Positions 6,001-9,000 of a DNA stretch of 10,715 bases are shown here, one piece after another (position 1 is the stretch's first letter; each line of letters starts with the position of its first letter). The stretch lies in the UHGV virus genome UHGV-0269425; one strand, 5' to 3'. The position numbers were made by a program. This DNA is from a virus.

Positions 6001-9000
6001 AACCCTCTTAAAGATGGTTGCAAATTTTGTGAGTAGTTTAAAGCTACCCGCAAATTTTTCAGGGCATCGCCAGCCACTTTGAAAAAATGCTTTCCTTCAA
6101 TAAAGCGCTCAGCATTTCTGGCGTAGTTATTTTGAATGTTCTTAACTTCAGCACCGTACAACTGCGCCAAAAGTTCGGTGGTAATAACAGGAATCTGGTT
6201 ATGGGTGATCGGGGAGAGAGTTTCAACAGAGATTTGAGTTGTCATAATGACGCCCTCGAGTGGTTTCTTAATAACTCACCACCGACGACGCCAATCGTCT
6301 GGTGGTGAACTGTGCAGGGTTGGCGTAACCGGGAAACCGACCGGCGCGGATCTCTCCGCCCCCACACAGCCCACCATAATTCAGATGTGCGCGTGCATAC
6401 GACAATAAAAAACACGCTCGCGGCGTGTATCTGTCGCGGTCTCTATCCAGGACGCCAATCCCGACGCCAGATTTTGCTGGCGCGTGAGGAATATAGCCCC
6501 GAATAAATCATCACGTCAATCACCTTGTTTTCCTCGCACGATGTCTTAGCCACCGGATATCCCACAGGTGAGCCGTGTAATTGAAGGCTTTAACGTCAGA
6601 TTCTTTTGGGATTGGCCTGGGTTTATTTCTGGAACGTTTCGTTGGAAGGTAATTGCAGTTTTCACAGACTATATCGGTAATGCTTCGTCGCTGTCGTCTC
6701 ATTCATACCTCCTGTCGGTAAATCTGACACCCTGCTCCACAGCCCAGGAAGTTGTGTACTCAATCAGGCTTGCCATACGCTTCACGCTCATCTGCGCACT
6801 GCTTTCGCGGATATTGACGTATTCACCTTCAAGACCTGGCAAAACATCAGCTTCCTGTTTTGTAGCCACGGCATGACCGCTGATTAACAAAACTTTCCAC
6901 TGTTCTGGTTTTAGCCATCTGCCGCACCACTGAACCTGTCGGGAGATATCAGCGACCATCGCGTGAAATTTGGCATTTTGATCGAGATTCCGCTTGTAAT
7001 CGGTGATGCGGATCGTAACGGGTTTGTCTTTATCGAGAGTTGTTGCAAGGATGGCGTTAATGGCGAATTGTTGCTGCTGCTTACTTCGGAGGAAGATAGT
7101 CTGGTTCATTATTCCCTCTCACTGGATTTTCCCAACAAAAAAGGAGCCGAAGCTCCTTTAGTTTCAGAATTCAAATTGTCTTGCCCGCAGGCTTTTCAGC
7201 ATTGGCATGGCCCGCTGGATAACGGAACTTGACATGTCGAGACGTGTTACCTCCCTTAGTAGCGCGTCTCTGTTCTTCGTCACCATGTAGATGGTCTCAA
7301 ACGCAATGTCATACAGCTTGTTCGTGTATGAGGAGTTCAGCTCTTTCATAATGGGATACAGGTGTTTGCTGAGGTCCTGGGCTTTTTCCATCCAGAGCTG
7401 CATGTAGCAAAGGAGGATGATTTCTTCGGCTGTGAATTGTGGCTGAATCTGCGGCTGCTGTTCGGTTGGTGCTGTTTTTCCCTGGCTGAAATAGCAGTCT
7501 TCCAGTTTTTCGAATACCTCCCACGCCCGATCGGTTTCGAGCATTTTTGCGTGACGGGCTGCGCCGCGTTCTGTCCAGAGGATGAGGGAGCGAACGTTAC
7601 GGGCAATTTTCACAGAGTAGTTAAAAGCTACTCTGTGCTTGAACTCACGTAAAATTTCACCTTCAAGTTTGAAGAAGTGTTTTTCCTCAATGAAACGACC
7701 TTTGTTTTCGTGGTGATTCTGGCGAATACGAATAGCTTCTGTGCCGTAAAGGTGCGCCAAAAGTTCGGTAGTGATAACGGGGATCTGCTTGTAAGTAATC
7801 GTGGAGAGTGTTTCAACAGAAACTTGAGTTGTCATAATGACGCCCTCGAGTGGTTTCTAAACTATCACCACCGTCAGGTTCCTAATCATCGGGTGGCGAG
7901 ACGTACAGGGTTAGGAACTACCGGGAAACCAACCGGCGAGCTTTTCAGCTCCCCTATACGCCCCACCATAATTCAGATGTGCGTGTGCATACGACAATAA
8001 AAAACACGCTCGCGGCGTGTCTCTGTCGCGGTTTCTATCCGGGGTTCCTAATCCCGACGCCAGATTTTGCTGGCGTGCGAAGAATATAATCCCGGATATG
8101 TGTTGTCGTCAACATACCTTGAATGTATATAACAAATTTGTTATGTTTACTCTCATGAACTACATTATCGAATACTACAGTGACGAGGTTGAAGCTGAGA
8201 TCCTTTCTCTTCCTGAGACCTTACAAGCCCGGTACATTCGGTACACGGAGAAAATGCGTATTTACGGAGCTAATCTTGGTTCCCCGCATACAGAGGCATT
8301 TGGCGACGGTTTGTTTGAAATCCGCCTTAAGGGCTCGGAAGGCATAGGGCGTGTTTTTTACTGCACGCTAAAAGGAAAGCGAATCATTATGTTGCATAGC
8401 TTTGTAAAGAAAACGCAAAAAACTCCACCTGCCGAGCTTAGAAAAGCTGAAACCAGAATGAAGGAGGTTAAGCATGACTGGTAAACGTACCCCACCTACC
8501 ATGACACACGATGATATGGTAGAAAAAATGTTGTCTAACCCCGCAGTAAAAGCAGAATACGACGCCATCGCCGATGAATTCGCACTACTTGATGAAATGC
8601 TGGCAGCACGAAAAGAAGCTGGCTTAACCCAGGCTGAAGTTGCTGAACGTATGGGAACAAAAGCGACTGCGATAACCAGAATGGAAAGCAATCTTGCATC
8701 AGGTACAAGCGGCCCATCATTTGCCACACTGAAAAAATTCGCCCGTGCTACAGGGAAAAAACTCCAGATCCGCTTCGTTTAACTCTCCACTACCGCGCCG
8801 TCATTCTGGCGGCGCTTTACCCCAGAGAAATATCAATCACCGGATTACCACATCCCACTCCGGCTCCTGCCATCTCAAATCCGGTGAATCATTTCTCTCA
8901 GGAATAACCATTACGTCCTTTTCCCTTCGCTCCCTTTCTATCGCCATCACAGCCAATGCTGCAACCATGATGTATTTTTGTTCGTCGGTTCCTGTTTCAT

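Follow-up and report, generated by a model that had tools for sequence, protein, structure and literature searches.

Two probable c4-type antirepressor switches with a half-shared recognition code in the nin region of a lambdoid prophage

The DNA analysed here, a stretch of 10,715 nucleotides from the virus genome UHGV-0269425 (its full length is called the window throughout), carries two related regulatory modules, A and B, each consisting of a promoter, a short terminated leader, an RNA region of the c4 type and an antirepressor gene (Table 1). All functional features of both modules lie on the minus strand. Copies A and B have in common a TTGACG-18-TATATT promoter, the 5' hairpin CGCCAGCAAAAUCUGGCG, the terminator ACACGCCGCGAGCGUGUUUUUU, the Shine-Dalgarno (SD) sequence GAGGG, the context of the ATG and the start of the downstream open reading frame (ORF), which in both cases encodes an antirepressor with ORF6N and P22_AR_C domains; the two antirepressors are 49% identical to each other. 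In consensus and terminator scans, a promoter and terminators bracket each unit, and among 59 homologous modules the -35 hexamer is kept in nearly all and the -10 hexamer in most. A first-pass annotation of this DNA had described copy A as preserving the scaffold of copy B, and this holds for the hexamers, their spacing, the 5' hairpin, the terminator and the SD sequence, but the uniformity of the two copies was overstated: from the -35 hexamer to the ATG they are 80% identical, with 56 differences. Of these, 18 fall in three motif sites, 16 in the P1 and P2 stems of the c4 RNA, where many positions are altered on both sides across the family, nine in the promoter region (none within the -35 or -10 hexamer) and 13 elsewhere.

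The three motif sites had been singled out in the first pass as replaced together between the copies, and their coordinates agree with the sequence to the exact base. In copy A, GGTTCCTAATC has two exact plus-strand matches in the window, at 7877-7887 and 8043-8053 (expectation after shuffling 0.00), and its core complement, TTAGGAAC, lies on the plus strand at 7911-7918 (three found in the window against 0.28 expected). The copy B motif, GACGCCAATC, stands at 6287-6296 and 6451-6460 (0.04 expected) and its complement, TTGGCGT, at 6320-6326, with one extra chance copy of this 7-mer at 5935. The arrangement of the motifs is far beyond chance. These sites correspond to the a1, a' and a2 sites of a c4 system, the a sequence being UUAGGAAC in copy A and UUGGCGU in copy B. 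A further triplet, b1/b'/b2 (GAAACC/GGUUUC), had been overlooked; it has identical specificity in both copies and covaries across the family. Because the b triplet is the same in both, only half of the recognition code is swapped between A and B.

The identity of the modules emerges from an Rfam scan at gathering thresholds, which are 45 bits for C4 (RF01695), 50 bits for isrK (RF01394) and 46.7 bits for c4-a1b1 (RF03163, "a1, b1 targets of C4 antisense RNA"). Both copies match C4 and isrK above these thresholds, and copy B in addition matches c4-a1b1 with 50.5 bits at 6496-6444. The minimum free energy (MFE) structure of the c4 region is the family fold in both copies, with a long closing stem P1, a tetraloop hairpin P2 and a hairpin P3 (A, -43.8 kcal/mol, z = -5.1; B, -44.5 kcal/mol, z = -4.0), and it leaves a' and b' unpaired, b' being in the P3 loop. 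The complementarity of a' with a2 extends over 8 bp in A and 7 bp in B, that of b' with b2 over 7 bp in A and 6 bp in B, and in both copies b2 ends 3 nt ahead of the SD sequence GAGGG. Upstream of c4, a1 and b1 lie in a two-hairpin leader. In module A this leader starts with hairpin 1, continues with hairpin 2, which presents a1, and with b1 in single-stranded form, and closes with an intrinsic terminator; its MFE fold has three hairpins. Both leaders also have the anatomy of IsrK, an RNA of ~77 nt that begins with two hairpins, ends in a Rho-independent terminator and immediately precedes an antirepressor operon. By analogy with phage P1, mature c4-A would extend over about 7967-7892, which would place a2 of module A ~6 nt 3' of the mature end. 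Taken as a whole, with a probability of roughly 0.9, each copy forms an immI-type switch complete in itself and homologous to the P1 and P7 c4/ant systems, situated in the nin region of an Escherichia coli prophage of the lambdoid, Shiga toxin (Stx)-phage-like kind. The system itself is the long-known c4 antisense/antirepressor switch, and three Rfam families already represent such switches.

The first-pass annotation had read the coordinated three-site change as the signature of RNA-RNA pairing and had suggested that homologous leaders be aligned and searched for covariation. Homologues were collected by scanning viral contigs for a conserved 15-mer (120 loci) and with an nhmmer profile built from the two copies (91 modules, 61 unique), and 59 full-length distinct modules were aligned with MAFFT; the counts that follow refer to these. 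In them a1, a' and a2 change together, not independently, as RNA-RNA pairing predicts. The a1:a' helix has 100% paired cells, with 6/8 pairs changed on both sides and 0 on one side only, and the a':a2 helix has 97.6% paired cells, again with 6/8 pairs changed on both sides. In a register-free check, a1 and a' are exact reverse complements of each other in 59/59 modules. Agreement of a2 by column is 56/59, where two of the exceptions are one-column alignment shifts and one is a true recombinant (L092 7905-8228), whose a1 and a' are of the GGAAC type and whose a2 is of the GGCGU type, followed by a sequence that is not an antirepressor start. Apart from this recombinant, the a':a2 rule is never truly broken. 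Shuffle and slide controls cover the whole structure, that is, the leader hairpins, the c4 stems and one a helix: 0/500 whole-structure shuffles reach the observed values, and sliding the partner by 1-3 columns lowers whole-structure pairing to ~40%. The leader hairpins and the c4 stems P1, P2 and P3 covary as well.

For the b sites, the longest complementary run was determined free of register, since MAFFT gaps are inconsistent around b2 and column counting is unreliable there. Wherever the ant leader is intact, the pairing of b' with both b1 and b2 extends over 6-9 nt, and the b-type changes together at all three places. The sample holds 13 a-types, 12 b-types and 22 combinations, and, judged from these sequences, the a and b sites reassort independently: a = ACGCCAA is combined with b = GGUUUC, GGUGAU or GAUUACC, and b = GGUUUC with six different a-types. 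A contig scan with the A-type a' 19-mer found only three loci, namely two real modules, in Thiolinea disciformis and Thiothrix eikelboomii, and one chance coding match in a Desulfosporosinus metagenome-assembled genome. The complete promoter/leader/terminator/c4/target module is thus present in Thiotrichales (L128 2350-2770 in Thiolinea disciformis; L130 in Thiothrix eikelboomii), with the copy A a-type (UUAGGAAC/GUUCCUAA) and a different b-type (GAACUGAA/UUCAGUUC).

The first-pass annotation had drawn an analogy to the c4 heteroimmunity of P1 and P7. The relationship is in fact one of homology, as seen in the C4 and isrK matches above gathering and in the coordinated swaps of P1 and P7. The GenBank record of P1 gives the order promoter P1c4, a1, b1, c4, a2, b2, icd. 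When P1, P7, SJ46 and D6 are aligned with both window copies, a1 of the window maps to the loop of leader hairpin 2, a' is single-stranded and just 5' of AACCC, a2 comes directly after c4, and the b triplet reads GA(A/G)ACC / GGUUUC / GAAACC. As in the immI region of P1 and P7, the elements follow one another in the same order from the promoter to the antirepressor gene, c4 has b' in a hairpin loop and a' in its 3' junction, and a change of specificity involves matched substitutions at every cognate site. Between P1 and P7, each of the six sites shows a 2-nt difference, with complementarity preserved throughout, and these coordinated differences are the sequence basis of their heteroimmunity (PMC12197685). 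Unlike P1 and P7, the window has antirepressors of the ORF6N/P22_AR_C type instead of Ant1/2 and no C1 operator overlapping the promoter, its host element is an integrated lambdoid prophage with the modules among nin genes, and the two modules stand in tandem, 1.6 kb apart, differing only in the a set. Within the P1-like phages (P1, L122; P7, L123; SJ46, L124; D6, L125) the sites are also seen to reassort: SJ46 joins the P7 a-type to a new b-type, and D6 the P1 a-type to the SJ46 b-type.

The modules also resemble the IsrK-orf45/STnc1160-anrP locus of the Salmonella prophage Gifsy-1, which aligns with them throughout, with a near-identical leader, c4 region and ant start. Gifsy-1 has the copy B a-type (UUGGCGU/ACGCCAA) and the same combination of a short terminated small RNA (sRNA) and a read-through mRNA. 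Rfam isrK, c4-a1b1 and C4 all match at the Gifsy-1 locus (L127 34131-34329, minus strand), and by sequence "orf45/STnc1160" is the c4 homologue and IsrK the a1b1 leader; the 2016 Gifsy-1 paper makes no mention of c4 or P1 (PMC4825925). In that work, the IsrK mutations G28A/G31A activate anrP translation and C162U/C159U compensate (PMC4825925). The mutated positions map to a1 (UUG28GCG31U) and a' (AC159GCC162AA), which are those of the copy B a-type. Since the Gifsy-1 mutations are compensatory, a1:a' pairing is proven for this a-type. Unlike the window, Gifsy-1 has the b-type GGUGAU/AUCACC, and its module lies downstream of Q, whereas both window modules lie upstream of Q.

A phage with two c4-controlled antirepressor units of different specificity is likewise known. 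In the P1-like plasmid prophage D6, whose second c4 region was noted previously (PMC6799933), module 1 has a = UUGACAG and b = CUUACG, and module 2 has a = UUGAGAC and b = GCAAAAGG. In contrast to the adjacent window modules with their common b, those of D6 are tens of kb apart, both contain icd, and they differ in a and b. The second c4-icd-antirepressor module of D6 lies at L132 29180-29470, and its a and b are unrelated to those of the first. Both the specificity swap and the presence of two modules per phage therefore have precedents (P1/P7, D6 and the Gifsy-1 IsrK mutants). A more distant parallel is the CI RNA of P4 (seqA/seqC), cited as an analogue by the IsrK authors (PMC4825925), in which a processed, leader-derived small RNA pairs with complementary sites up- and downstream and sets immunity. 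Unlike c4, P4 CI RNA acts by transcription termination and differs in fold and sequence, and the Rfam scan, the only search made for it, gave no match to it in the window.

In the proposed mechanism, a constitutive sigma-70 promoter would drive each module, and most transcripts would end at the intrinsic terminator, yielding an IsrK-type sRNA of ~78 nt that displays a1 and b1. Read-through transcripts would carry the c4 RNA of ~76 nt and then the antirepressor mRNA. Within c4, a hairpin loop would expose b', an unpaired junction would expose a', and these two sequences could pair with the ant leader, a' with a2 just 3' of c4 and b' with b2, which ends 3 nt before the SD sequence. Such pairing would block antirepressor translation, so that the prophage repressor would stay active. 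Hartmann et al., in 1995, and Biere et al., in 1992, are said to have described RNase P processing of c4 and Rho-dependent polarity after the translational block. The a' and b' sequences of c4 would also be bound by the upstream a1 and b1, both in cis and from the free short sRNA; a1 and b1 would act as a competitor or decoy able to relieve repression. Specificity would reside in the 7-9 nt a and b sequences, and because a differs while b is common, the two antirepressors would be addressed by different c4 RNAs at the a site. Cutting of c4 from the read-through transcript and its repression of the antirepressor by a2/b2 pairing are documented for known systems, and a1/b1 competition for c4 has been proposed in the same sources (P1 record annotation; Citron & Schuster 1990, as summarised in PMC12197685 and in Weinberg et al. 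2010, Additional file 1). In Gifsy-1, the free short leader RNA, IsrK, activates translation in trans (PMC4825925). Nothing mechanistically new is required for the window.

Several observations weigh against the assignment of both copies to such switches, or limit how far it can be taken. The leader of copy A scores below the gathering threshold of c4-a1b1, though isrK, which covers the same hairpins, passes. No icd-like ORF lies between c4 and ant, the ATG of ant following directly after b2 and the SD sequence, so that b2 abuts the SD of ant itself; in P1, by contrast, c4 acts on the translation of icd, to which ant is coupled, although an icd ORF is a trait of the P1 subgroup and not of Rfam C4 as a whole. 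Corresponding to Gifsy-1 "orf45", a short minus-strand ORF opens at the AUGG of c4; it has 27 codons in A (7969-7886), where it stops inside a2, and 33 codons in B (6377-6276), where it stops at GGUGGUGA; the two frames differ through an indel in a'. Gifsy-1 "orf45" ends on the anrP start codon (an AUGA overlap) and is reported to couple translation, whereas both window ORFs stop well before the ant ATG. Because of this frame shift and early stop, the orf45-anrP coupling cannot apply here in the form described for Gifsy-1, and a conserved coding or coupling ORF in the c4 region is unlikely; this candidate was rejected. Finally, while the anatomy of the modules, their homology and the three-way covariation at the a and b sites are observed directly, both modules are predicted to be expressed, processed and insulated, with c4-A acting on ant-A and c4-B on ant-B, and c4-A and c4-B may cross-react through their common b'/b2.

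Alternative explanations concern the nature of the pairing and the separation of the two copies. The first-pass annotation had kept open that the sites are iterons, and a motif that occurs three times per module, as two direct copies and one inverted copy, might at a glance be taken for an operator array. Under this explanation, the 8-11 bp motifs would be bound as DNA, in the manner of iterons or operators, by a protein, for instance the ORF6N antirepressor, and their coordinated change would reflect co-evolution of the protein with its sites. However, the site in the middle is without exception an exact reverse complement and belongs to a covarying RNA (Rfam C4), and the a and b sites are located in the loops or junctions of RNA hairpins that are conserved and have covarying stems. 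The b1:b' helix, moreover, often includes a G.U wobble (GAGACCG with CGGUUUC), which works only as RNA and only in the minus-strand transcript, and c4 stem positions are held as G.U in up to 58/59 sequences, this maximum being reached in the closing stem. In addition, one a-type occurs with different antirepressor N-termini and promoters, also in Thiothrix and Thiolinea, and the Gifsy-1 compensatory mutations act through RNA structure on native gels (PMC4825925). The protein-site explanation is rejected, its remaining probability being negligible: the sites act by RNA pairing, not as iterons. RNA pairing could nevertheless operate mainly in cis, with a1:a' and a':a2 as alternative helices of one long leader that adopts a silent or an active fold, c4 being non-diffusible and the short IsrK-type sRNA the sole trans-acting activator. 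A cis switch of this kind was proposed for Gifsy-1 isrK-orf45-anrP, where a1:a' ("helix b-I") within one transcript silences anrP and short IsrK activates in trans (PMC4825925); covariation cannot distinguish cis from trans pairing, and the segment 3' of c4 can borrow the 3' strand of the c4 stem to build a hairpin with a2 in its loop (z = -3.0 in copy B). Still, c4 of P1 and P7, 77 nt long after processing, acts as a repressor in trans and sets superinfection immunity (P1 record; Citron & Schuster 1990, as summarised in PMC12197685), a stable species, STnc1160, lies downstream of IsrK in Salmonella (PMC4825925), and the c4 fold is very stable and strongly conserved, which fits a free RNA. A mainly cis mode thus seems rather improbable, and the two modes are not exclusive.

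As to the separation of A and B, the first-pass annotation had proposed two mutually non-cross-reacting circuits, which is supported for the a set, where the copies differ, but not for the b set, common to both copies. In duplex energies, which are crude predicted estimates, cognate a pairing amounts to -10.1 to -10.3 kcal/mol, and cross pairing on the a2 target collapses to about -2 kcal/mol. Pairing at b is -8.3 to -10.4 kcal/mol, cognate and cross alike, and the b' x b2 cross duplexes (-8.3 to -8.9 kcal/mol) are as strong as the cognate ones. It is conceivable, therefore, that the copies are not insulated, each c4 docking on the b2 of the other, the site nearest the SD sequence, so that the antirepressors would be partly co-repressed as a coupled pair. 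We regard this as unlikely but as a serious contender. The summed a2 + b2 energy for A and B is about -10.5 in cross pairing against about -19 in cognate pairing, and by the same measure P1 and P7 have about -14.5 against about -26.5; since the cross pairing retained between A and B is less than that between P1 and P7, which are heteroimmune, insulation of the two window switches appears plausible from these estimates. That b = GGUUUC occurs with six a-types in nature further suggests that a alone can define the type. Elsewhere, both a and b differ between paired modules, as in D6 and in the other two distinct two-module loci (three contigs: L001, the identical L028, and L032), but distinct two-module loci number 3 among the 92 loci with c4, too few for testing avoidance of a common specificity.

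A broader interpretation, offered tentatively and with less confidence than doubt, is that a and b form a freely reassorting two-part address by which co-resident prophages, in large populations, could hold apart their antirepressor switches, that a pair sharing b is deliberately half-coupled, that the a1b1 leader is a general inducible anti-antisense decoy in many prophages, and that the IsrK and c4 literatures describe one switch. If so, each c4 of a half-coupled pair would touch the ribosome-proximal site of the other, and this could give a graded or hierarchical release of the two antirepressors. The module would decide the timing of prophage antirepressor synthesis and hence the induction of lambdoid and Stx-type prophages; readable specificity codes would allow one to predict which prophages of a polylysogen cross-repress or cross-induce; and recognition of the c4/IsrK switches would merge the literature on P1 c4 with that on Salmonella IsrK. 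Modest interest attaches to the modular a x b code, to the fact that the tandem pair has half of its code in common, and to the identity, so far unacknowledged, of IsrK/orf45 with a1b1/c4.

Table 1. Positions of the parts of modules A and B in the window, with the basis of each assignment
Feature	Position	Strand	Basis
Module A promoter TTGACG-18-TATATT	8083..8112	-	consensus scan, 10/12 matches
Module A leader sRNA (IsrK-type = c4 a1b1 leader), ~78 nt	7999..8076	-	Rfam isrK RF01394, 69.2 bits
Module A a1, UUAGGAAC, loop of hairpin 2	8044..8051	-	motif copy at 8043-8053 of the first-pass annotation
Module A b1, GAAACCG	8029..8035	-	7-nt pairing with c4 loop UGGUUUC
Module A c4 antisense RNA	7889..7973	-	Rfam C4 RF01695, 66.0 bits
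b' of c4-A, UGGUUUC, loop of hairpin P3	7925..7931	-	complementarity search, fold
a' of c4-A, GUUCCUAA, single-stranded junction before AACCC	7911..7918	-	complement site of the first-pass annotation; covariation, fold
Module A a2 target, UUAGGAAC	7878..7885	-	motif copy at 7877-7887 of the first-pass annotation; covariation with a'
b2 GAAACCA (7857-7851) and SD GAGGG (7847-7843) of ant-A	7843..7857	-	sequence, pairing with b'
Antirepressor A, 223 aa, ORF6N + P22_AR_C	7164..7835	-	Pfam E = 3.7e-19 and 1.9e-07
Intrinsic terminator closing module A	7140..7159	-	terminator scan
Module B promoter TTGACG-18-TATATT	6490..6519	-	consensus scan
Module B IsrK-type/a1b1 leader	6407..6483	-	Rfam isrK, 75.5 bits
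Module B a1, UUGGCGU	6458-6452	-	motif search
Module B b1, GAGACCG	6443-6437	-	complementarity search
Module B leader terminator stem	6428-6412	-	terminator scan
Module B c4 antisense RNA	6298..6381	-	Rfam C4, 66.7 bits; fold
Module B b', CGGUUUC	6339-6333	-	
Module B a', ACGCCAA	6326-6320	-	
Module B target region	6253..6294	-	a2 UUGGCGU 6294-6288, b2 GAAACC 6267-6262, SD GAGGG 6257-6253
Antirepressor B, 234 aa, ORF6N + P22_AR_C	5541..6245	-	Pfam domain search
Terminator after antirepressor B	5524-5503	-	

The neighbours of the modules (NinB, NinE, a KilAC antirepressor, DUF1364, RusA, NinH and Q) are those of the nin region of a lambdoid prophage, and the closest relatives are E. coli prophages and Stx-converting phages. 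In E. coli ML35 and many other strains, a tandem pair flanks ninB-ninE, with an upstream module of yet another a/b type. The German commensal E. coli strain G1/2 (L126) has module A at 100% identity and is without module B, its antirepressor and the KilAC gene; compared with window 4744-6530, NinE goes straight to DUF1364. The modules thus behave as cassettes, since this strain has A without B. In a megablast search, the leader of module A has matches in 736/5426 complete E. coli genomes, at up to four places per genome, and in the RefSeq and phage records inspected no RNA gene is annotated at the module leaders.

Two further features of the window lie outside the modules. A full-length match to Rfam STnc100 (RF02076; 167.8 bits) is found on the minus strand at 2929-3135, between the Q antiterminator gene (3474-4007, minus strand) and a SASA-family esterase gene (797-2707, minus strand), which is the position of a PR'-type late leader RNA such as lambda 6S or StxS. 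Divergent from the module A promoter, a Gp49/RelE-HigB-like toxin gene (8155-8484, plus strand; likely ATG at 8155) is followed by a gene for an antitoxin with a helix-turn-helix motif (8474-8782, plus strand), and between the divergent units lies a perfect 16-bp palindrome, ATAACAAATTTGTTAT (8129-8144), which may be the antitoxin operator.

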